In this document: positions 7,736-47,270 of the stretch, in pieces
Position numbering within the stretch: the first letter of the stretch is position 1
Layout: each line of letters opens with the position of its first letter
Virus record (IMG/VR): IMGVR_UViG_3300038505_000007
Span: 45,946 to 109,945 of that record
Source: a virus
Length of the DNA stretch: 64,000 bases
Direction: 5' to 3' (one strand)
Notes under the pieces: model-generated
The model's input: only the letters and a program-made list of their open reading frames with translations
Databases searched by the model: none
Told to the model about the DNA's origin: nothing
Made by a program: the position numbers and the translations under genes

Positions 7736-8545
7736 ATGGGCAACTTGTCATGTGTTGAAGGCGTAACTAAAGAAGAAATCATTGACTTGTTTAGTAATCT
7801 ATTCTATTTTAGAAAATTAGAGAGCATATCTAATAACAGCTTAGACGAGTACTTACTGGCAAAATTATCGCCAGATATAGTGGAAAAGATAAAACTAAAG
7901 AAATCTAAAATAAAGATAGTACCTGCAATAAACAGCATAAACATACAACATGCCGACAAATTCATTGTGTTGCTAAACAAGAACAACGAAGACTGGGGCG
8001 AAGTGTTTATTACTTCCATCTTGTTATCATACAGATCAATAATGAAAAAGGTAGATGAAATAATTAAATTCTTGGATCAACTAAATATATCAAGAATAGA
8101 GAATCTTAACGCATATAGTATTTTTGATTTAGCTATAAACATAGCTCATGGATATAAAGTTTTTAAGTTTCACACCGACGTAGAGAGGTCTTATGTAAAG
8201 TCAATGACTCAAGCGATTGAGCTTATTATCGACGTAAATAGCTTCAACATCCTAAGAGATCCATCTACTAATGAGCTTTTACTATGTCCGCTAATCTATA
8301 TATCTACTTACTACGCAAACCTGTTTCCCTATGAGCTTGAAATAAAAGCAAATGACATACTCGCCATAATGAAACAAAAAATACTTACTGGCATGTTAGA
8401 CGACGAAACCAGTGAAAAAGTAATGATTAACTCAATATTAAACGGCGAGCGCTACTTATCTAAAGAATTATTAAGATCTGGCCGTAAAGCTATGGCAGCA
8501 CAGGATGAAATAAAGACCCTTATGAGGATTTCCAAAAACATATAG
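7736..8545 (+). CDS. hypothetical protein (269 aa)
   Basis: Long ORF, AAGGAG SD. Confidence 0.7.
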   Translation: MGNLSCVEGVTKEEIIDLFSNLFYFRKLESISNNSLDEYLLAKLSPDIVEKIKLKKSKIKIVPAINSINIQHADKFIVLLNKNNEDWGEVFITSILLSYRSIMKKVDEIIKFLDQLNISRIENLNAYSIFDLAINIAHGYKVFKFHTDVERSYVKSMTQAIELIIDVNSFNILRDPSTNELLLCPLIYISTYYANLFPYELEIKANDILAIMKQKILTGMLDDETSEKVMINSILNGERYLSKELLRSGRKAMAAQDEIKTLMRISKNI

Positions 8546-8691
8546 ACTACTATGTCTAGAACACAATAGATGCATCTCATATTCTACATGACATATGTCC
8601 ATGTACTGTAAGTACAGGACTTTATCCTGATTTAATTTGATATAAAAATGATACGCGAGTAAGTTGATTAACTTTACTGTACAAAAAACAT

Positions 8692-9296: not shown

Positions 9297-9506
9297 ATGA
9301 AGCTTCAATCAAGAAAGCCAGTTAAGCAGGCGATCGCTGTCTACTCAGTCACCGTAGACGTCGAAGAAGGAGACACTCTAGAGTCCCTGGAAAAGTTCGT
9401 GGTTCCTTGCTTTAGAAACTTAAAGCCTAAAGAGATCGTGTTTACTACCTCCTATGGAGACGAGATCTTCACAGACGAAGAGCTTGAACAGTATATCAAG
9501 GAGTAG
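9297..9506 (+). CDS. hypothetical protein
   Basis: SD GGGAGGT. Confidence 0.65.
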   Translation: MKLQSRKPVKQAIAVYSVTVDVEEGDTLESLEKFVVPCFRNLKPKEIVFTTSYGDEIFTDEELEQYIKE

Positions 9507-9508
9507 TC

Positions 9509-9715
9509 ATGTATAAGTCGTTCTTTGATGACGTATATTCTGTTGATATAAAAAACCTGCGATCCAATCTTATGTCTAGAGCAAGGAAGTTCATCGCCTC
9601 TCTGGATAAAGAGGCGTATTTAGATTTGTTCTACGACGTCGACGGTCTTTGTGTGGTGTACATAGACGAGAGTGGAACAAGAAGAACGAGAAAGTTCAGT
9701 ATAAGAGACTGCTAA
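9509..9715 (+). CDS. hypothetical protein
   Basis: AAGGAG SD, tight operon spacing. Confidence 0.6.
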   Translation: MYKSFFDDVYSVDIKNLRSNLMSRARKFIASLDKEAYLDLFYDVDGLCVVYIDESGTRRTRKFSIRDC

Positions 9716-9730
9716 CAAGATGAGGGGAAG

Positions 9731-9940
9731 ATGGGAGAATTGTTTTTACTACTGAGTGCTACGGTTAAGGGCAAGACTAAGAGTGTAGTGTTGTCTACAT
9801 CAATCATCCGCTCCATGATTGAGCACACTGATCCTGATAAGACCATCATATTCTTAGATGATAAAAAAAAAGTCGTTGTCAATCACAGCGTTGAGGACAT
9901 TTTTAGCATCATACGAGATGCTAGGTCAAAAAAGAGGTAA
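9731..9940 (+). CDS. hypothetical protein, weakly FlbD-like
   Basis: Pattern IIRSMIEHTDPDKTIIFLDDKKKVVVNHSVEDI loosely resembles FlbD family; GAGGGG SD. Confidence 0.5.
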   Translation: MGELFLLLSATVKGKTKSVVLSTSIIRSMIEHTDPDKTIIFLDDKKKVVVNHSVEDIFSIIRDARSKKR

Positions 9941-9942
9941 GC

Positions 9943-10476
9943 ATGGGGTACAGCGGGATAATGCAACGCATAAACTTACTCAGTGAGTCTAGTATAGAAA
10001 ACATACTACTCTCCAGTGGTGTATCTGATAACACTAAAAAGATATTATCTTTGCTATACAAGAAACACGTAAATCAGAAAAACCTATTTCTAGCGGTCTC
10101 CCCTGTCCCTCTGATAATGAGAAAGTTCAATCTACCCATAGATAAAGCACTTAAAGTTAAGCTTTCGTCTATCAAAAAAGTATCCAGCTCTCTCTCAAGA
10201 AAGATCAAATCGCAGCTCAGCGTTCCCTTTTCAGATATAAAACAAGAAATGAACATCAGTGACAACATATGGATGAGTTTTGTTCTTAACGAGGCAAATG
10301 TAGACAAATTCTGTGACACTCTTATTCAATCGCTCTCTAGATCTATAAATAACCACTATGAGAAAAATAACAACCTCTTCTTTGATAAGAAAGAGTTCAT
10401 GCTTATGAACAGTAAGCTTATTAAGGCTATTAGCTTTATATATAAACACTTATACCAGGAGAACCAACATGAATAA
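9943..10476 (+). CDS. hypothetical protein
   Basis: ORF with GAGGT SD. Confidence 0.7.
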   Translation: MGYSGIMQRINLLSESSIENILLSSGVSDNTKKILSLLYKKHVNQKNLFLAVSPVPLIMRKFNLPIDKALKVKLSSIKKVSSSLSRKIKSQLSVPFSDIKQEMNISDNIWMSFVLNEANVDKFCDTLIQSLSRSINNHYEKNNNLFFDKKEFMLMNSKLIKAISFIYKHLYQENQHE

Positions 10477-17540: not shown

Positions 17541-17567
17541 GCCACGGGCTAATTGATCACCCGTGGC
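17541..17567. terminator. hairpin between convergent genes
   Basis: GCCACGGG/CCCGTGGC 8-bp stem; no clear U-tract. Confidence 0.45.
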
Positions 17568-19281
17568 ATGTCAAGCACTCATCTTTTGTAGCTGCCTGAG
17601 ATTCTTTTGCTTCCCTAGAGGCAGCGTCTGCTTTTAATACGCTGCTGCCCCTGCAGTAGTACAAGGTCTTAACGCCTAACTTCCAGGCCTCAAAGTGAAT
17701 CTCATGAAATAGTTTAGGATCGACGTTGGCATAGAAGAACAAGTTTAAGCTCTGAGACTGATCTATGAACTTCTGCCTTTGAGCAGCCTGCTGTATGATG
17801 GCTTTTTGATTTATCTCCCTTGCGGTTTTAAATACCATCTTCTCTTCTTGTGTCAAGAAATCGAGATGCTGAACGCTTCCACCGTTTACCACTATACTCT
17901 TCCACACCTCGTCGTTGTCTTTACCTTTCTGCTTAAGCAGAGCCTCTAGTGTTGGGTTCTTCACTAAGAAGACACCTTTTGACGTCTTGTCTGCATAAGC
18001 GTTCGCCACTACTGGTTCTATACCGTAGCTGACGCCGCCGCTGATTATAGAGTTAGACCTAGTAGGAGCTATAGCTGTCAAGTGAGTGTGTCTCATACCT
18101 GTCCCGACACACCACTCTGGCTCTCCATATTCTTGAGCCATCTCCATCGAGGCCTCTCTTGTTTTTTGCTGTATAGTTCTGAATATCTCAGAGTTAAGCT
18201 GCATCGCTCTAAAGGACTCAAAAGGAACACCCTTCTGCTGCAGCAACGTATGCCAGCCCATAACTCCTACTCCTAGAGCTCTAGATTTCTCAGCAAACCT
18301 CACTGTCCTCTCAAACCCAGGAATGCTGCGTGCCTTATCTATGAACTCAGACATCACGCCGTCTAGGAAGTAGACGGCTATCTTAGGAAGATCTGTATCT
18401 TTCCACTCATCCCACTTAGCTAAGTTAAGCGACGACAAGCAGCAAACAAAGCTGTGGTCCTCGTCTGTATGGAGTGTTATCTCGCTGCATATGTTAGTCA
18501 TCTCTACTTTGAGGCCGTTCTTCTTGTACGACTCAGGGTTTGCTTTGTTTACGTTACCCTCAAACATGATATAGGGCTCGCCTGTCTCCATGCGCTCTTT
18601 CAATATCTCTACCCAGAGCTCCCTAGCTTCTCTGTCTCCCTGCTCTACTTTCTCCATGAATTGATCACTTATGACTATGCAGTGGTGTAGATTCAAGCAC
18701 TGTCTGTTAACGTCTCCAGTCTGTCTTCTTATTCTAAGAAACTCTTTTATATCTACGTGATCTACATGTAGATTAACAGAAGACGCGCCTCTTCTGACAC
18801 TGCCTTGCGAAGTAGCTATAGTGGCTGAGTCTACGACCTTAGCCCAAGGTACAACTCCCTCAGACTTCCCGTTCTTACCTTGTTTTATTTCAGCCCCTCT
18901 TCCTCTTATCCTAGACATTCCAATGCCTACTCCGCCTCCGTGTTTAGAGAGCATAGCTAGCTCATGCACTGTTTTGAATATACCGTCAACAGAATCAGGC
19001 ATAGTAGCGCCAAAGCAAGATATAGGAAGACCTCTCTCTGTGCCCATGTTCGCCAACACAGGCGTTGCTCCTCCAAGCCATCCCTTCCAAAAGGCATCAA
19101 AAAATCTTTCTGCCAACTCTGGTTTGTTTAGTCTACTCGCTGCCGCTCTAGACACTCTAAGCCACATGTCTCTAGGCGTCTCGTTTTCTAGTAGATACCC
19201 GTTTTTAAGAGTCTTCCACGCAGCTTCTGTTAACCACTCAGGTGCCTCGTTTCTTGCTTTTAGCTCTTCTAATGAACTCAT
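17557..19281 (-). CDS. nrdA: class Ia ribonucleotide reductase alpha subunit, lacking an ATP cone
   Basis: ATPV, PISCF, TNICSEI, CCLSS, APTRSNS, KTLYY and C-terminal CLTC. Confidence 0.95.
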   Translation of the reverse strand: MSSLEELKARNEAPEWLTEAAWKTLKNGYLLENETPRDMWLRVSRAAASRLNKPELAERFFDAFWKGWLGGATPVLANMGTERGLPISCFGATMPDSVDGIFKTVHELAMLSKHGGGVGIGMSRIRGRGAEIKQGKNGKSEGVVPWAKVVDSATIATSQGSVRRGASSVNLHVDHVDIKEFLRIRRQTGDVNRQCLNLHHCIVISDQFMEKVEQGDREARELWVEILKERMETGEPYIMFEGNVNKANPESYKKNGLKVEMTNICSEITLHTDEDHSFVCCLSSLNLAKWDEWKDTDLPKIAVYFLDGVMSEFIDKARSIPGFERTVRFAEKSRALGVGVMGWHTLLQQKGVPFESFRAMQLNSEIFRTIQQKTREASMEMAQEYGEPEWCVGTGMRHTHLTAIAPTRSNSIISGGVSYGIEPVVANAYADKTSKGVFLVKNPTLEALLKQKGKDNDEVWKSIVVNGGSVQHLDFLTQEEKMVFKTAREINQKAIIQQAAQRQKFIDQSQSLNLFFYANVDPKLFHEIHFEAWKLGVKTLYYCRGSSVLKADAASREAKESQAATKDECLTCHG

Positions 19282-19295
19282 CTTGTTACCCCACA

Positions 19296-20267
19296 TTATC
19301 CAAAAATAGACTCAACACTCCACTCAACTACTCCCTTAGAGTAGTCAGCGACTCTTCCAGCAAAGAAGTCCTGATAGTTCTCTCCGGCTGTTAAGTAGTC
19401 AAACCAATTAAGCCTAGATATAGCTTCTTTGTCTAGGTTTTTCCAGTTTGTCTTTAGACCTAGGTCGTGTAGTTTAGTATTTGCTCTGTGTTTTATATAC
19501 TCTTTTAAGTCTTTTGGATCAAGGTCTAGAACAGGTTTCCCATCTAGGAAAATTGAATCAATGTAGTCGATTTCAAGTTTTACTGCATCTCTAGCTGCTT
19601 GATATATCTTACTCTTAAGATCGTCATCTAGTACATCTGGATACTCTTTGACTAGCTGTCTAAAGAGCCAGCAGCCAGCAGCAGAGTGAAGAGACTCATC
19701 TCTAGCAGAGAAAGTAATAATCTCCCCTACGCCCTTCATCTTGTTGAACCTGCTGTAGTTAAGCAGTATGGCGAAAGAAGAGAACAACTGAACACCCTCT
19801 CCAAAGGCGCTAAAAACAGCTAAGCTGAGAGCGATGTCTCTCACAGAGTCGCCTTTTGTGTCGATCAACTTGTCAATCTTAGCTTTTCCTGCTGGATCCT
19901 TTAGGAAAGCAGCGAAGTCGTACAAGCCAAGAGACTCATTGAGATACGCGTAAGACTTAGTGTGTATAGTCTCCATGTTGCCAAAAGCCGCAGCCATCAT
20001 CTGTATCTCAGGCTTCTGGAACCACTTGTGAACCTTTCCTATCCAGTACTCGTTTCCTATGACGATCTCAGTCTGAGTGAAGCTCTTTAATATTCCACCT
20101 ATGACTCTCTTCTCTTCTTCTGATAGGACTTGCTGCCAATCATTGATATCTCTGGCCATAGAGATCTCACTGTGAAGCCAGTGAGCTTGCTGCTGCTGTA
20201 ACCAAAAATTGTAAGCTTCTTCATACTCAAAAGGATAATAGATAAGCCTGCTATCGAGTAGCGCCAC
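19296..20267 (-). CDS. nrdB: class Ia ribonucleotide reductase beta subunit
   Basis: ETIHTKSY, EGVQLFSSF and DESLH di-iron motifs; GTG start at 20267 with GGAGGG SD. Confidence 0.95.
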   Translation of the reverse strand: MALLDSRLIYYPFEYEEAYNFWLQQQQAHWLHSEISMARDINDWQQVLSEEEKRVIGGILKSFTQTEIVIGNEYWIGKVHKWFQKPEIQMMAAAFGNMETIHTKSYAYLNESLGLYDFAAFLKDPAGKAKIDKLIDTKGDSVRDIALSLAVFSAFGEGVQLFSSFAILLNYSRFNKMKGVGEIITFSARDESLHSAAGCWLFRQLVKEYPDVLDDDLKSKIYQAARDAVKLEIDYIDSIFLDGKPVLDLDPKDLKEYIKHRANTKLHDLGLKTNWKNLDKEAISRLNWFDYLTAGENYQDFFAGRVADYSKGVVEWSVESIFG

Positions 20268-20355
20268 AAGTACCCTCCGCAAAAATAGTAATATAGGCTT
20301 GTTATACAACGCATAACACAGAAATCTTAAACAAAAATCCGCACAAATAAATGCA

Positions 20356-20375
20356 CGGTATAATTTATTATAGCA
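20356..20375. promoter_or_regulatory. back-to-back divergent -10 boxes for thyX (+) and nrdBA (-)
   Basis: CGGTATAAT at 20356-20364 (+) and TGCTATAAT at 20375-20367 (-). Confidence 0.55.
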
Positions 20376-21088
20376 TGAACAGCAGCAAAAAACAAAATAC
20401 AGAAGAAAGACTATCAGAGGCCCTACTGTCAAAAAACAAAGTCGAGCTTATATCTATAACAGAAAATGCAGAAAAAATAATAACTTACTGCGCAAGAGTC
20501 TCTAATCCTAAAAATCAACTTAATTTTCAATCAGCAGAAAAACTGATAAAATACTTAATAACACACAAGCACTGGTCTCCTTTTGAGATGGCTAGTATGA
20601 CAGTTCAGATAAAAACATCTAGAGCCATATCGTCGCAAATACTACGACACAGAAGTTTTACTTTTCAAGAGTTCTCTCAGAGGTACGCGGCTCTCGACGA
20701 GAGCGGAGTAGAGATATACACTGCAAGAAGACAAGACGATAAGAATAGACAAAACTCCATAGATGACCTACCAGAAGACATTAAGCAAGAGTGGGAAAGG
20801 AGACAGCTAGAAAACTGGAAAAAATCTTTTGAGCACTATAAGTGGGCTATAGACAACAACATAGCGAAAGAGTGTGCAAGATTTGTGTTACCATTGGGTA
20901 CATCGACTACGATGTATATGTCCGGCACAATCAGATCATGGATACACTACATAGAGCTAAGATCAGCAAACGGCACTCAAAAAGAACACATGGATATAGC
21001 TCTAAAATGCAAAGATATCTTTAAGAGAGAGCTGCCCTTAATATATCAAGCACTGTGGGGAAAAGATGAGCAGGAACAAAAAGAGTAA
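20375..21088 (+). CDS. thyX: flavin-dependent thymidylate synthase
   Basis: HWSPFE, RHRSFTFQEFSQRY signature, ARFVLP, W.HYIELR. Confidence 0.95.
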   Translation: MNSSKKQNTEERLSEALLSKNKVELISITENAEKIITYCARVSNPKNQLNFQSAEKLIKYLITHKHWSPFEMASMTVQIKTSRAISSQILRHRSFTFQEFSQRYAALDESGVEIYTARRQDDKNRQNSIDDLPEDIKQEWERRQLENWKKSFEHYKWAIDNNIAKECARFVLPLGTSTTMYMSGTIRSWIHYIELRSANGTQKEHMDIALKCKDIFKRELPLIYQALWGKDEQEQKE

Positions 21089-25349: not shown

Positions 25350-25985
25350 ATGATAGAAGTTAAAGTATTAGAGATCCCTGAGACACTTGAGAAGAAGTGC
25401 CCTAGATGCGGCAAGCCCAGCGCTAATCCTAAAAACCCAAAAGGTCGATGCAAAGAGTGTCTAGCTGAGCTAAGAAGAGCAAAGAAGACACCTGGACACT
25501 ACATAAGAGCTCATACTAAAGCAGATGACGCACTTAGAAGACAAGACGGCAAGAACGGCACAGCTAGCAAGAAGACCAAAGGCAGAGGCACAAGAAAAGA
25601 GATAGTAGACAAGATACAGAGAGAAGAAAAGAAGACCGGCCAACTGTTGAGCCCAGATAGGATAGATAACTCTAAGGGATATGAGTCATCAAACGTGCGA
25701 GCCGTACCAGAAGAGCTCAACAGGGGGCGCCATAAGGTAGACGAAAAGAAACTCAAAGAGTGGAGAGAGAAGATAAAGAAGTACGACCTCACGCCTGAGC
25801 AGATGTACACCATGATGAAGCGTCTCGCAATCGAGGCAAATGATAACGGTGAAACCGAGAGACTAGTTAAGAGTGTTGGTTTAGAGTTTTTAAATTTCTT
25901 GTTTTCCAGCACAGAGGTTTTAGATAATGAGATCGCTACTGATAGACAGTGGGATGAGAATAAGAACAAAAGCGGAGATAGATGA
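25350..25985 (+). CDS. Zn-finger plus degenerate His-Me-finger (HNH-like) protein
   Basis: CPRC...CKEC and SPDRIDNSKGYESSNVRAV...N motif. Confidence 0.6.
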   Translation: MIEVKVLEIPETLEKKCPRCGKPSANPKNPKGRCKECLAELRRAKKTPGHYIRAHTKADDALRRQDGKNGTASKKTKGRGTRKEIVDKIQREEKKTGQLLSPDRIDNSKGYESSNVRAVPEELNRGRHKVDEKKLKEWREKIKKYDLTPEQMYTMMKRLAIEANDNGETERLVKSVGLEFLNFLFSSTEVLDNEIATDRQWDENKNKSGDR

Positions 25986-27966: not shown

Positions 27967-28161
27967 ATGTCTAGAAAAAAACAGCAAGAAACCAAACCAC
28001 AGCAGTTAAAAACTGATCAAAACAGGCCCAAAAGCGAGTTTAGCCTAAACGTGACTACAAGCGTTTCTCCGTCCCCGAGCGGCAAAAAGCTACAGGTAAA
28101 AATACAGCTATTAAAAAACGGAGAAGTCGTAGCAGAAGACTATGACTTCGTAATCATCTAA
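27967..28161 (+). CDS. hypothetical protein
   Basis: GGAGGT SD. Confidence 0.65.
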   Translation: MSRKKQQETKPQQLKTDQNRPKSEFSLNVTTSVSPSPSGKKLQVKIQLLKNGEVVAEDYDFVII

Positions 28162-28184
28162 TCCTGAAAATAATGGGAGATATT

Positions 28185-28574
28185 ATGAAAAACAACAATA
28201 GAGTATTAACAAACGAAGACGTGCTAAAGTACACTTCAATGGTAGAAAAATACATCAGGGACTCTGTAGTTAAGAACTGGAATGAGGCCTTCTATTATAG
28301 GAGCAATCCTAATGTGTCTTTGGGCAATTCCGGCTACACCATAACAGATATAAGGCAATACCTATACACAGAGGTATGCGTGGCTCTGCGTAACTACAAC
28401 CCAAACTATGTAACTAAGGAAGGCAAGAGCGTCCAAGAGTCTACTTTTGTTTATTTGCACCTGTATAACAGGATAGGGCAATTAATGAAGAGGCTTACAA
28501 AAAAGAGCTACGGGTATGGTGTTAAACACCTCAACTTAGAAGAGTACCTAAGAGAGGTAGACACAGATAGCTAA
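28185..28574 (+). CDS. sigma-70 region-2-like protein lacking region 4
   Basis: Y..MVEKY...DIRQYLYTEVCVALRNYNP...STFVYLHLYNRIGQLMKR follows the region 2.1-2.4 pattern. Confidence 0.55.
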   Translation: MKNNNRVLTNEDVLKYTSMVEKYIRDSVVKNWNEAFYYRSNPNVSLGNSGYTITDIRQYLYTEVCVALRNYNPNYVTKEGKSVQESTFVYLHLYNRIGQLMKRLTKKSYGYGVKHLNLEEYLREVDTDS

Positions 28575-28701
28575 TAGGAGACACAACATGGAAGCTTTTC
28601 TCTTAGAAAATAGCCTAGATGCCACTAAACCAGAAGAATCCGCAACGAACTAAGTAAAGTATAATACAGTGAGCAAAACCAACAAATAGGAGCAGCAAGT
28701 A

Positions 28702-29454
28702 ATGCTCGTATATAACACTACATCAGAGGCTTACTTAGGAACCCTAAAAGACATAATCACTAACACCGATTACGTCTCTTCTCCAAGAGGATTAAAGATA
28801 CTGGAGAAGATGAATTACTCTTTTAAGGTGTTGAACCCATCTGATTCACCAATAGTGACCATGTCAGAGAACAGAAACAAGAAGATTGCCTCTTACACTG
28901 AGAAAGAGAAACAGCTATACGAGAGTTGCTCAAATAGAGTAGAGGACTTTGCTAAAGCTTCTAAATTCTGGGAGCAGATAGCAAACCCAGACGGTACAAT
29001 AAACTCAGCATATGGCTACTTGATTTGGAAAAACAAATCCCATGGAGGTACTTTTGACTCAGAAAAAATCACTCCCTGGGAGTGGGCTAAAACTTCTCTC
29101 ATAAGAGATAAAGACACTAGGCAGGCAATCCTTAGGTTCTCTTTGCCAGAGCACCAATGGAGCGGAAATAAAGATCAAGTCTGCACAATGCACGGTATCT
29201 TTCATATAAGAGACAACAAGCTGCATCTCACCATCAACATGAGATCCAACGACGTAGTACTAGGTCTAGCATACGACATGCCTTGGTTTTGCTCATTGAT
29301 TGATAAGATGCTCCAAGAACTAAAGCCTGTCTATCCAGAGCTTTCAAAGGGAACATACACGCACATAGTGCACTCAATGCATGTGTACGAGAAAGATATC
29401 AATCTAGTAAATGAGATGCTAGGTGTGACAAATGAGAATACCGGTTCTAGATAA
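28702..29454 (+). CDS. thymidylate-synthase-fold enzyme, dCMP hydroxymethylase (T4 gp42)-like
   Basis: TRQA, DQVCT (catalytic Cys), MRSNDVVLGLAYD with Asp at the TS Asn177 position, HSMHVY. Confidence 0.8.
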   Translation: MLVYNTTSEAYLGTLKDIITNTDYVSSPRGLKILEKMNYSFKVLNPSDSPIVTMSENRNKKIASYTEKEKQLYESCSNRVEDFAKASKFWEQIANPDGTINSAYGYLIWKNKSHGGTFDSEKITPWEWAKTSLIRDKDTRQAILRFSLPEHQWSGNKDQVCTMHGIFHIRDNKLHLTINMRSNDVVLGLAYDMPWFCSLIDKMLQELKPVYPELSKGTYTHIVHSMHVYEKDINLVNEMLGVTNENTGSR

Positions 29455-30031
29455 TGGCTTTGTAGAGCTATTAGATTCTTGCATGACCACTAAGAAATTG
29501 AGAGAAATCGGCTGGTCATACTACACAGATGCTAAGACAAAAAATCTAGCAGTGTCAGGCGGAGAGCTCGAGACTCCGCCTACGTATCCAGTGGAGCTAG
29601 AAAAAGCTGGCTACCTCGTGTTAGGAATTAAGTGTCCATTGTTTTTTCAACTCTTCTTGTCTTTTTACGATATTAAGATAATAAACGCAGACATCAATAA
29701 GGGCCTCTCGAAAGTCGAGGCTTATAAACCAAACTTCACAGAGATTGGGTGTTCAGATATAGAGGACTCAAAAGTCATAGCTGACGACATATCTAGAACA
29801 ACAGACGCATTGCTTATAAACCCGCTCGCCTACCAAGCAGATGGAGCCGAGAAGTTTGTATCACAAGTCATAATGCCGTTATCTACATATACAACCATAA
29901 TAGCGTACGGCGAGTACAATTCTTGGGTAGAAATGCTTAAGAGACTCTACGACAAGAACAAGAAAACACCGAGACAAATACTTGACTACATACAAGCTAT
30001 AGAGCAAATAGTAAAAGCAGAGTGGACATAG
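29432..30031 (+). CDS. degenerate ThyX-fold protein lacking catalytic motifs
   Basis: MRIPVLDNGFVELLD, IKCPLFF, VIMPLSTYT, QILDYIQAI align to ThyX; no RHR...SxRY. Confidence 0.7.
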   Translation: MRIPVLDNGFVELLDSCMTTKKLREIGWSYYTDAKTKNLAVSGGELETPPTYPVELEKAGYLVLGIKCPLFFQLFLSFYDIKIINADINKGLSKVEAYKPNFTEIGCSDIEDSKVIADDISRTTDALLINPLAYQADGAEKFVSQVIMPLSTYTTIIAYGEYNSWVEMLKRLYDKNKKTPRQILDYIQAIEQIVKAEWT

Positions 30032-30062
30032 GATTGAGTAAGTCGTAAAACAAAGGAGTGTT

Positions 30063-30296
30063 ATGGTTTTTGCCGTCTTAGCATTAATCGTAATCAGCGC
30101 CTGGGTGAGCCCCATACATAAAAAAGACACGAACATAGCACATAAAAACATATGTACAATAGAGGTATATTCTTACAAAATAAACCAAAGAGAGACTATT
30201 CATGTTAAATACGGGGAGAGCTGTAACCCAGAGCTTCTACAACCAGTACGAAGCAGCTCTACTGATGTATACACTAACAGAGAGAGTATCAAATAA
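30063..30296 (+). CDS. small protein with N-terminal hydrophobic segment
   Basis: AAGGAG SD; two Cys. Confidence 0.55.
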   Translation: MVFAVLALIVISAWVSPIHKKDTNIAHKNICTIEVYSYKINQRETIHVKYGESCNPELLQPVRSSSTDVYTNRESIK

Positions 30297-30326
30297 CTCA
30301 ATAATGAACACGAGATAGGAGAGAAG

Positions 30327-30596
30327 ATGACAAGAGGTAAGAGAGTAATCAGAGGAAGAAAACCCAAACCACTTGGATACCTAAATCCTGATTCTTTTAT
30401 AGAGGAGATCGTTGAACAAGAGGTTGAGTTTGTCTGCCCTAAGAGGGGAAGAGTGAAAGAAAAAGTAATGGTAAAGAAATTAAGACCCGTCACCGTTGAA
30501 GACGTTAAGACTGTTCTTATAGAAGACATTGTTCTTAATTTAGAGAAAGAATCAGAAGATCAAGAGATCTCTGAGGAGAACGAAGAAGATGAATAG
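30327..30596 (+). CDS. hypothetical protein
   Basis: AGGAG SD. Confidence 0.65.
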   Translation: MTRGKRVIRGRKPKPLGYLNPDSFIEEIVEQEVEFVCPKRGRVKEKVMVKKLRPVTVEDVKTVLIEDIVLNLEKESEDQEISEENEEDE

Positions 30597-31050
30597 TAGT
30601 GTTAAAAATAAGGCAGCCGTATACATGGATGTAGCAGAGGCAGTAGCTCAACGGTCTCCTGACGCAGAAACAAAAGTTGGAGCCGTTCTAGTAAACAACA
30701 ATACTGGGGCTATATTAGCAACCGGCTACAACGGCTTTGTAAGAGGAGCAAAAGACGAAGAGCTGCCCAATACTAGGCCAGAAAAATACGAATACATGAT
30801 ACATGCAGAGCAAAATCTTATATCTAACTGCGCTAGGCATGGTATATCCACAGATAACTGTACGCTTGTTTGTACGATGACTCCGTGTAAGAGCTGCATG
30901 AGGATGTTAATAAACACTGGAATAACAAAGATTATCAGCAAAAACCTATACAAGGACTTCAAAGAAATACTTGAGATGCGTGATGTTTGTATAGACTTAG
31001 ACTACGACCAAGAAAATAATTTTTATGTCATACAGTACAGACCTAGATAA
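30589..31050 (+). CDS. dCMP deaminase
   Basis: VGAV, TGYNG, HAEQN, TMTPCKSC zinc motifs. Confidence 0.93.
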   Translation: MNSSVKNKAAVYMDVAEAVAQRSPDAETKVGAVLVNNNTGAILATGYNGFVRGAKDEELPNTRPEKYEYMIHAEQNLISNCARHGISTDNCTLVCTMTPCKSCMRMLINTGITKIISKNLYKDFKEILEMRDVCIDLDYDQENNFYVIQYRPR

Positions 31051-31071
31051 AAACAAACTAGTTGTTTTTAT
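31047..31071. terminator. perfect 10-bp inverted repeat at end of + strand block; IS insertion site
   Basis: ATAAAAACAA-ACTAG-TTGTTTTTAT. Confidence 0.5.
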
Positions 31072-31159
31072 AAGAGATAGGTGTAAAACCCCTACGCCTT
31101 CAGGCTAGGGGATATAAGCCCTAATGACCTTGTTCTTGAATATATTTTTGGATAATCTC

Positions 31160-31220: not shown

Positions 31221-32329
31221 ATGATTGTAAATAAGGCATATAAATTTAGAATTTATCCAAACAAAGAACAAGAAATATTAATTAATAAAACATTTGGTTG
31301 CTCCCGATTTGTATTTAATCATTTTTTAGCAAAATGGGACAATGCTTACAAAGAAACAGGAAAAGGTCTAACTTATAATTCTTGTTCTGCTCAGTTAACA
31401 CAATTAAAAAAGAATTAACTTGGCTAAAAGAAGTAGACAAATTTTCACTCCAAAACTCTTTAAAAGACTTAGACAAGGCATTTAAAAACTTCTTTGAAGG
31501 TAATGCAAAATATCCAAAGTTTAAGTCAAAGAAAAACAAACACCAAAGTTATAGAACAAACTTTACAAATAACAATATTAAAATAGAAGGCAACAGAATA
31601 AAACTTCCTAAATTGGGATGGGTAAAGTTTGTAAAATCAAGGGAAGTAGAAGGTAAAATCTTAAATGTAACTGTCAGTAGAACGCCTATTGGCAAGTATT
31701 ATGTATCAATATGTTGTAAAATAGATGAAGTTGATAAAAAGCCTACCACTAATAAGATGATAGGCATAGATTTAGGTATAAAAGATTTTCTTGTAGATAG
31801 CGATGGGGAATAAAATACCGAATTCCAAGTATTTAATTAAGTTGGGAAAAAGACTTATCAAAGAACAAAGGAAACTTTCTAAAAAGCAGGTGGGAAGTAG
31901 TAACTTCTACAAACAAGCAAAAAAGTAGCAAAGATACATGAAAAGATAAGAAATCAAAGGGAAGACTTTTTGCACAAGTTGTCCTCTAAAATTATAAACG
32001 AAAACCAAGTTATAATTTTAGAGGATTTAAAGGTTAAAAATATGTTGAAGAATGATAGGTTATCGAAGTTCATATCAGACAGTGCATGGGCAAAATTTGT
32101 AAAAATGCTTGAGTATAAAGCATTATGGTATGGAAGAGCGATAGTAAAAGTAGATACATTTTATCCATCAAGTCAGATTTGCAGTGTATGTGGTTATAGA
32201 AATGAGAAGGTAAAGGATTTGAGCATAAGGGAATGGGAATGTCCGAAATGTGGAGCAAGGCATGACAGAGATATAAATGCCAGCATAAATATAATGAACG
32301 AAGGTAAAAGAATACTGGGTATTGCTTAA
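31221..32329 (+). pseudogene. tnpB: frameshifted TnpB RNA-guided nuclease
   Basis: [12 protein letters not shown], RuvC IGIDLG / ILEDL / HDRDINA, Zn finger CSVC..CPKC; frameshifts near 31410, 31811 and 31920. Confidence 0.92.
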
Positions 32330-32513
32330 GCAATATAACAACGTAGGGTAGGGACTACCCGAAGTTACGCCTGTGGACACTGGAGGTTACAGCCGACAAA
32401 AGCAGTGCTGGTGGATGAAGCAGGAATCTCGCGACTTTAGTCGTGAGAGGTTTAAAGAGCTAAATTAGCACACCTTAGCATACCTCACCCATCTGGGCTA
32501 AACAGAAAATTAA

Positions 32514-32541
32514 ACGACCCCAGGTTTGAGCCTGAGGTCGT
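32514..32541 (-). terminator. intrinsic terminator closing the - strand structural block
   Basis: On - strand ACGACCTCAGG-CTCAAA-CCTGGGGTCGT followed by TTAATTTT. Confidence 0.65.
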
Positions 32542-32563
32542 AAAAAATATAAAACAATACGTG

Positions 32564-46530: not shown

Positions 46531-47220
46531 TTATAATCTTTTTGATATAGCGTCCAATATATTGCTAAAAACCTGCTCTTTTGTTTGATCTTTTTCTACT
46601 AAGATGTGCTTAGTCTTCCAATGAGGAGCCATTGTGTGCATCTTTCTAGAGACTTCGTTAAAAAACTCTATACCAAGATTCTCTATGTGATCTCCTCCTC
46701 TATGTTCTGTGTTTGATCTCTTAGCTCTATCTAGCGCCCAAGATGGATTATTTGTATCAAGAACAACTATCAGATCATATATATCTAATAATGAAGTCAG
46801 GTATCTATCAGATCTAGGAGACAAACGATTTAATTCTCTTGTTACTGTCTTGTCTAGATCTTCAATAAAATTGCTAGAAACACCTAAAGCAGCAGAATAA
46901 ACCATTCCGCTTAGAGCGCCTCTGTCTTGTATCACGTAGTCATAGTTATTTAGTATGTCTTCGTTTATCTTAATATAATGAGATACTCTACTAGAGAGGA
47001 AGATGAGCTCTCTGGTGAGATTGTTAATGTTTTTTGCGTTTTCTCTATTTAAGATGCTATCCTTGATAAAGGAACCTAACCCGAAATTATTAAAATCTGT
47101 CTCTTTAGTGACATAGACTTTATAACCTTTACGCTCTAGATAGCTAGCAAGCATGTTTATATGTGTTGTTTTTCCTACTCCATCTATACCTTCAAAACAT
47201 ATATATTTAGCTCTCTTCAT
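46531..47220 (-). CDS. tmk: thymidylate kinase
   Basis: FEGIDGVGKTT P-loop, VTKE, R..H, VIQDR; likely start ATG 47220. Confidence 0.85.
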   Translation of the reverse strand: MKRAKYICFEGIDGVGKTTHINMLASYLERKGYKVYVTKETDFNNFGLGSFIKDSILNRENAKNINNLTRELIFLSSRVSHYIKINEDILNNYDYVIQDRGALSGMVYSAALGVSSNFIEDLDKTVTRELNRLSPRSDRYLTSLLDIYDLIVVLDTNNPSWALDRAKRSNTEHRGGDHIENLGIEFFNEVSRKMHTMAPHWKTKHILVEKDQTKEQVFSNILDAISKRL

Positions 47221-47270
47221 GAAGAAGATTATACTAAGCCAACAATAAAGCGAAACAGTCAAGCAAGCTT

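Follow-up and report, generated by a model that had tools for sequence, protein, structure and literature searches.

A predicted gp42-like deoxycytidylate 5-hydroxymethyltransferase in a lineage of uncultured hot-spring phages

A thymidylate-synthase-fold gene and its neighbourhood

The window considered here is a stretch of 64,000 nucleotides of viral DNA, part of a 126-kb IMG/VR record that is estimated to be 75% complete. It contains a gene of the thymidylate synthase (TS) fold, an uninterrupted reading frame of 250 aa that begins with ATG and is preceded, on a reading of the sequence, by a ribosome-binding site 9 nt 5' of the start. A perfect TATAAT is found at 28660-28665, 37 nt 5' of the gene start, as judged from the letters only. 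The gene, the codons of its key residues and other genes of nucleotide metabolism in the window are as follows.

17557-20432, minus strand: class I ribonucleotide reductase (RNR), for dNDP supply; large subunit at 17557-19296, small subunit at 19296-20432
20351-21088, plus strand: intact ThyX, source of dTMP (PF02511, E 7.5e-49; RHR-x7-S-x-R-Y present)
28688-28692, plus strand: AGGAG ribosome-binding site of the TS-fold gene
28702-29454, plus strand: TS-fold gene, predicted deoxycytidylate 5-hydroxymethyltransferase (gp42-like)
28906-8, within the TS-fold gene: codon for Glu69
29005-13, within the TS-fold gene: codons for Ser102/Tyr104
29119-21, within the TS-fold gene: codon for Arg140
29173-5, within the TS-fold gene: codon for Asp158
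29182-4, within the TS-fold gene: codon for Cys161
29242-7, within the TS-fold gene: codons for Arg181-Ser182
29251-3, within the TS-fold gene: codon for Asp184
29275-7, within the TS-fold gene: codon for Asp192
29432-30031, plus strand: ThyX-fold paralogue without the RHR and S-x-R motifs, overlapping the TS-fold gene by 23 nt
30589-31050, plus strand: dCMP deaminase, converting dCMP to dUMP (PF00383, E 2e-22)
46531-47262, minus strand: dNMP kinase of the thymidylate kinase family (Tmk-like; PF02223, E 1e-22), a candidate for the conversion of hm-dCMP to hm-dCDP

Profile and structure searches establish the fold and family of the TS-fold protein. It matches Pfam PF00303 (Thymidylat_synt) at E 1e-15 and 58 bits, against a cut-off of 24.3, and PHROG 160 at E 1e-33. 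None of the NCBIfam ThyA equivalog cut-offs (108-427 bits) is reached, with scores of at most 40 bits, and the protein is thus a divergent member of the superfamily rather than a housekeeping ThyA. When all PDB sequences were searched with phmmer, T4 dCH (gp42) was retrieved at E 1.2e-20, the Streptomyces rimofaciens enzyme MilA at 5e-16 and the best ThyA at 1e-8. The AF2 model (pLDDT 95.9, with 51 homologues in the input) gave a similar picture in Foldseek comparisons to the PDB, where MilA (E 6e-22, TM 0.79) and T4 dCH (E 8e-19, TM 0.73) were matched with probability 1.0 and every ThyA ranked below these two.

The gene sits in a conserved setting. Relatives on contigs of 146-177 kb share one gene arrangement (ORF133 homologue, TS-fold gene, ThyX-fold ORF, dCMP deaminase and UDG), and every relative examined has the deaminase downstream of the TS-fold gene. 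Among the eight closest relatives, ThyX and the Tmk-like kinase are found in six and dUTPase in all eight; six near-complete to complete relatives have in common a toolkit of ThyX, dCMP deaminase, RNR, Tmk-like kinase and dUTPase. Also close to the TS-fold gene are genes for two ClpP homologues and an ATP-dependent ligase. Elsewhere the record encodes a trimeric dUTPase, RecA, a GroEL-like chaperonin and a PolC-like polymerase. The dUTPase resembles those of staphylococcal phages and seems to be an ordinary phage enzyme of the trimeric type, and no cultured relative of the PolC-like polymerase exceeds about 30% identity. In some relatives (L004/L005), a gene for NT5C, a 5'(3')-deoxyribonucleotidase, directly precedes and overlaps the TS-fold gene (9373-10017 and 8053-8664). 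The contigs of these ~175-kb relatives also encode a vault/MVP-like protein, a Band_7 protein, a peptide deformylase and NAMPT.

The neighbour that overlaps the TS-fold gene is itself a divergent protein. We found 157 homologues, about 177 aa long, on contigs of similar type, and relatives keep the paralogue 2-4 kb downstream of the TS-fold gene. Its model (pLDDT 88.9) matches Thermotoga maritima ThyX with probability 1.0, a TM of about 0.7 and about 20% identity. In the alignment, the RHR and S-x-R positions of ThyX, located by comparison to the T. maritima sequence, are replaced. Prediction of a complex between two copies of the TS-fold protein and one of the paralogue scored 0.00, which is evidence neither way. 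In one relative (L003), an overlap of 23 nt is likewise seen between the TS-fold gene and the first ORF downstream, which is not related to ORF 29432-30031; the true homologue is situated farther along in the same direction. For G007 and G008, both of them complete relatives, ThyX-family matches are limited to a weak one of 178-195 aa, and these phages may keep the degenerate copy without an intact ThyX.

Active-site signature and phylogenetic position

Residues of the TS-fold protein were assigned by pairwise HMMER alignment and by a MAFFT alignment of 155 sequences, comprising the query, 147 database relatives and references from annotated records (RB55, which has a T4-type gene 42; RB69 gene 48; E. 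coli thyA; and the TS homologues of Xp12, SPO1, ViI and phiW-14). Both approaches align Cys161 to Cys148 of T4 and Cys146 of E. coli, and Asp192 to Asp179 of T4 and Asn177 of E. coli. Residues 158-162 read DQVCT and residues 180-192 read MRSNDVVLGLAYD, with Asp192 ending GLAYD. Of the 15 active-site positions that can be aligned across the 155 sequences, 14 are identical between the query and gp42; those named, in E. coli numbering, are E58, W80, Y94, R126, L143D, C146, H147T, Q165M, R166, S167, C168N, D169, G173, N177D and Y209. The sole mismatch falls at E. coli R127, the second phosphate-binding arginine, which is Gln in the query and also in SPO1 gp29 and ViI. This level of agreement is seen at an overall identity to T4 gp42 of only about 28-29%.

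Several of these positions have published functional correlates. Replacement of E. coli Asn177 by Asp selects dCMP as substrate (PMC8670742, PMC13326640), Asp or Glu in place of Leu143 goes with non-methyl products and D169N marks the 5-hydroxy synthases, all tested 5-hydroxy-dCMP synthases having Asn there (PMC13326640). The signature of hydroxymethylases is an Asp or Glu three residues before the Cys, where ThyA has Leu, together with Ser/Thr-x-Tyr (PMC6400193). In T4 dCH, Asp145 positions and activates a water molecule with Ser94 and Tyr96, and D145N abolishes activity (PMC6400193). The query has both water-activation elements, as Asp158-Q-V-Cys161 and Ser102-A-Tyr104, and it keeps the folate-side residues Glu69, Trp90 and Asp184 (the Glu58/60, Trp80/82 and Asp169/171 positions). 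Residues of T4 gp42 (PDB 1B5E, 1B49, 6A9A) that are matched in the query thus include the Cys, Asp179, Asp145, Ser94-x-Tyr96, Asp171 and Glu60, and the two proteins are also alike in fold and length (250 aa in the query, 246 aa in T4).

Because the published diagnostic residues all match a hydroxymethylase, the product can be narrowed to 5-hydroxymethyl-dCMP. We consider it likely that the TS-fold gene encodes a folate-dependent, gp42-like deoxycytidylate 5-hydroxymethyltransferase, a prediction based on residue correlations from a few papers. A first-pass annotation had recognised DQVCT and MRSNDVVLGLAYD as motifs of a thymidylate synthase homologue, with Asp at the equivalent of ThyA Asn177 and a T4-like D-x-x-C-T loop. 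The motifs are real and belong to a member of PF00303 and PHROG 160, Asp192 is the correct residue in both alignments, and Asp158, Cys161 and Thr162 match gp42 in the larger one. The same annotation had left the product as 5-hydroxymethyl-, 5-methyl- or 5-hydroxy-dCMP; the first of these is borne out by Asp158, Ser102-x-Tyr104 and Asp184, while the residues expected for the other two have no match in the query.

The phylogeny gives a concordant placement. A tree of the 155 sequences (IQ-TREE, LG+C20, quick search) puts the query in a group of 19 rows (SH-aLRT 90) within a clade of 139 rows (SH-aLRT 95) that also holds gp42. E. coli ThyA, Xp12, RB69 gp48 and SPO1/ViI/phiW-14 fall outside a clade of 149 rows (SH-aLRT 89). 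This comparison had been proposed at the outset as a check on the dCMP assignment, and it places the query with gp42, and both ThyA and the dUMP hydroxymethylases outside. With its long branches, single outgroup and short search, the tree serves as support for the residue argument and not as independent proof.

The signature itself is widely kept. The four-residue pattern D-C-D-D is present in 136 of the 155 alignment rows and is invariant in the query's subfamily, and the Cys161 and Asp192 positions are invariant in both the broad and the closer subfamily alignments. Nested in the Asp-type radiation is a subclade of nine D-C-D-N rows (SH-aLRT 99; P0190, P0192, P0198, P0207, P0214, P0225, P0236, P0248 and P0273), and P0142, with Asn, pairs in the tree with P0135, with Asp. 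Judging by sequence, the D-C-D-N members and P0142 appear to have reverted, or switched, from hydroxymethylation of dCMP to that of dUMP.

Relatives of the TS-fold protein are numerous. A word-indexed search returned 1820, of which the top ones are 58-70% identical and are annotated with PF00303 only; an exhaustive search gave 3483 matches at E<=1e-3, of which 154 reach E<=1e-30. The closest record by protein in the phage collection is an unannotated 462-kb uncultured phage (45% identity), no cultured phage is nearer than 45% identity to the TS-fold protein, and megablast of 28000-31100 against the same collection gave no match. Near-identical DNA is present in runs of 12 hot-spring and microbial-mat studies dated 2014-2025. 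Across four hot-spring data sets, the gene shows four synonymous and two non-synonymous differences (T22P and T218I), with none at catalytic positions, so that the gene is conserved across hot-spring populations. Contigs from an RNA library (run X5) span the TS-fold gene, which is not proof of transcription. In one relative (P0032, 412 aa), an Endonuclease_7 domain is fused to the TS-fold enzyme; the window also holds a free-standing endonuclease VII-like gene at 25350-25985 (phrog_1035, E 6e-13).

Predicted reaction and competing products

By analogy with the characterised enzymes, Cys161 would attack C6 of dCMP while Asp192 reads and protonates the N3/N4 face of the cytosine, and the methylene group of 5,10-CH2-THF would pass to C5. 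A water molecule activated by Asp158 and held by Ser102 and Tyr104 would then add to the exocyclic methylene, in place of hydride transfer, to yield 5-hm-dCMP and released THF. The phage Tmk-like kinase and a host NDP kinase may convert hm-dCMP to hm-dCTP for incorporation by the PolC-like phage polymerase, and 5-hydroxymethylcytosine (5hmC) in progeny DNA would protect against restriction. In a parallel route, dCMP deaminase and ThyX would convert remaining dCMP to dTMP, the role played in T4 by cd and td. Substrate and product, like incorporation into DNA and the extent of replacement, are what we infer from these residues and genes; the phage DNA probably contains 5-hydroxymethylcytosine, the step from enzyme to virion DNA being part of the same prediction.

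Other products can be envisaged for a TS homologue that uses dCMP. One is 5-methyl-dCMP, made by a C5-methyltransferase like that of Xp12 either for 5-methylcytosine DNA or, through the neighbouring deaminase, as a route to dTMP. Asp192 would suit any dCMP-using member of the family and the deaminase is conserved downstream, but the residue three before the Cys is Asp158 in the query, as compared to Asn in Xp12 and Leu in ThyA, and in T4 dCH that Asp diverts the reaction from hydride transfer (PMC6400193). Xp12 moreover does not belong to the clade shared by the query and gp42, and the intact ThyX already makes dTMP. We therefore regard methylation as improbable. The end product could also be a modified uracil, either because the enzyme takes dUMP in spite of Asp192 or because hm-dCMP is deaminated to hm-dUMP, leading to 5hmU DNA as in SPO1. 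The nested nine-row Asn-type subclade indicates that substrate switches happen, and the deaminase is tightly linked; against this, Asp192 is invariant in the subfamily, and the dUMP hydroxymethylases that have been characterised, those of SPO1, ViI and phiW-14, carry Asn without exception and group in a clade of their own. 5hmU phages such as SPO1 suppress dTMP, whereas this phage has retained both ThyX, in intact form, and a Tmk-like kinase, i.e. it makes thymidine nucleotides. A modified uracil is thus a decidedly poor candidate for the end product.

A flavin- and O2-dependent 5-hydroxy-dCMP synthase, which would feed ether-linked glycosylation, has to be considered because RB69 gp48 and DLP3 gp80 are likewise phage TS homologues with N177D and an acidic position 143. 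These proteins bind flavin, use O2 and carry out a pre-replicative modification of dCMP (Lee et al., NAR 2026, PMC13326640). The class was recognised only in 2026, and its sequence limits are poorly known. Unlike these enzymes, all tested members of which have Asn at the Asp169 position, the query has Asp184 there and keeps the folate-type residues. RB69 gp48 differs from the query at positions 58, 80, 168, 173 and 209 as well, and its very long branch falls outside the clade. The searches described below turned up no NDP-sugar or glycosyltransferase genes, and we give 5-hydroxylation a very small probability. MilA (PDB 5JNH, 5B6D) is the best structural match and resembles the query in having Asp at the 143 and 177 positions and in its hydroxymethylation chemistry, which raises the idea of a CMP hydroxymethylase that serves a nucleoside metabolite or RNA instead of DNA. 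MilA is 70-90 residues longer, and its preference for ribose depends on Ala and Lys in place of Ser and Arg (PMC5175136). At these positions MilA has Ala176 and Lys133, as opposed to Ser182 and Arg140 in the query, the deoxy-type pair of T4 dCH. The gene also lies in a phage deoxynucleotide module with RNR, ThyX, dCMP deaminase and dUTPase. A role outside DNA is accordingly hard to credit.

The preferred assignment, 5-hydroxymethylation of dCMP, invites comparison with known systems. Thymidylate synthase, dCMP deaminase, RNR and a dNMP kinase all have counterparts in T4, but the synthase here is ThyX instead of the ThyA-type td, and the kinase is Tmk-like instead of gp1. Two further components of the T4 system, the gp56 dCTPase and the alpha- and beta-glucosyltransferases, were not found here. 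The host genome differs too, being that of an uncultured phage of ~170 kb from hot springs that encodes a PolC-like polymerase and does not belong to the Straboviridae. MetaGPA surveys of uncultured phages have associated Asp177 and loss of His147 in TS homologues with modified-cytosine DNA (eLife 2021, PMC8670742); the query likewise has Asp192 and, at the His147 position, Thr162. Many of the MetaGPA homologues are paired with a 5hmC carbamoyltransferase (PMC8670742), whereas none is detectable here. We read the protein as a predicted gp42-type 5-hm-dCMP synthase from a new uncultured hot-spring lineage; the enzyme class and the sequence rules have been published already.

The prediction of 5-hydroxymethylcytosine DNA in widespread, uncultured phages of ~170 kb from hot springs and microbial mats would place gp42-type chemistry far outside the T4-like phages and in warm environments. 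It would bear on the use of restriction enzymes, CRISPR nucleases, bisulfite or enzymatic methyl-sequencing and nanopore basecalling with these genomes. The variant toolkit, which combines ThyX with a Tmk-like kinase and shows no sign of a dCTPase or sugar transferase, makes this lineage a reasonable place to seek naked 5hmC or a new downstream modification.

Accompanying functions and variation around the locus

In T4-like systems, hydroxymethylation is accompanied by further enzymes, and we searched for these in the record and its relatives. The supply of dTMP, which the first-pass annotation took to be covered already, is accounted for by the intact ThyX at 20351-21088 and the deaminase at 30589-31050. 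That annotation also saw no glycosyltransferase in the window and suggested a search of the rest of the genome for dCTPase and transferases. GT1, GT2 and beta-GT searches agree for the window, and the wider search likewise returned neither function from the 126-kb record or relatives. No six-frame match to GT1, GT2 or T4 beta-GT was obtained in the record, although the beta-GT model matched no control genome and that search proves little. GT1, GT2 and MazG were also not detected in the eight close relatives searched, of which six are 100% complete, and the record had no six-frame match to a carbamoyltransferase. A dCTPase of the MazG or gp56 type gave no match in six frames of the record, which is 75% complete, or in 11 relatives, the gp56 family being divergent. 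Searches by tblastn and phmmer with RB69 gp56, gp45 and gp47, and with the unassigned ORFs located between the TS-fold gene and the deaminase in relatives, returned nothing from this genome apart from a UDG remnant. About 60 further ORFs of the record were scanned with Pfam and PHROG, without any match relevant to base modification.

Lack of a dCTPase leaves exclusion of dC from the DNA without explanation, so replacement could be partial; lack of a transferase means that the base may remain as plain 5hmC or undergo a change through some activity that cannot yet be recognised. DHFR also had no six-frame match in the record. The predicted hydroxymethylase and ThyX would both return THF rather than DHF, and a missing DHFR would fit this pair of enzymes. 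Observed-to-expected ratios for 4-mer palindromes range from 0.83 to 1.12, with no marked avoidance, a measure too indirect to count for or against modification. A gene for an N6/N4 DNA methyltransferase (PF01555, E 3e-10) lies outside the window, at 124470-125783 of the record on the minus strand, where it adjoins the trimeric dUTPase gene at the record end; it could be a second, independent DNA modification.

A more adventurous view is that 5-hm-dCMP is the lineage's entry to an undescribed cytosine modification, with the ThyX-fold paralogue, or unassigned ORFs between the hydroxymethylase and the deaminase, acting as a new component that modifies nucleotides or controls their pool. It draws on the complete relatives, which have no recognisable glycosyl- or carbamoyl-transferase or gp56-type dCTPase and always have, near the hydroxymethylase, a conserved ThyX-fold protein devoid of the flavin/dUMP motifs. 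We think this unlikely.

The region beyond the deaminase is polymorphic. A TnpB gene of the IS605 family occupies 31221-32329 and is split in three frames (HTH_OrfB_IS605, OrfB_IS605 and Cas12f1-like TNB). Just after it, at 32462-32563, is a 34-codon remnant of the C-terminus of UDG, in the place where relatives carry a UDG gene. In contigs from two further hot-spring studies, 31050/31072-32456 is absent and 222-270 other letters stand in its place. Given the remnant and these contigs, the 5' part of UDG appears to have given way to the TnpB element in this variant. Bins without coverage within 31400-32400 in DNA runs are interpretable only with the bridging contigs. The copy in another run has one-base indels at 31405, 31805 and 31918, located at or between the breaks that separate the three TnpB fragments. 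Upstream, in contigs of two other populations (run X10, where the phage reaches a depth of about 218x, and run X14), about 870 extra bases are inserted at 28605, between ORF133 and the TS-fold gene, while a third population (run X18) is colinear with the window; this polymorphic insert is possibly a mobile endonuclease gene.
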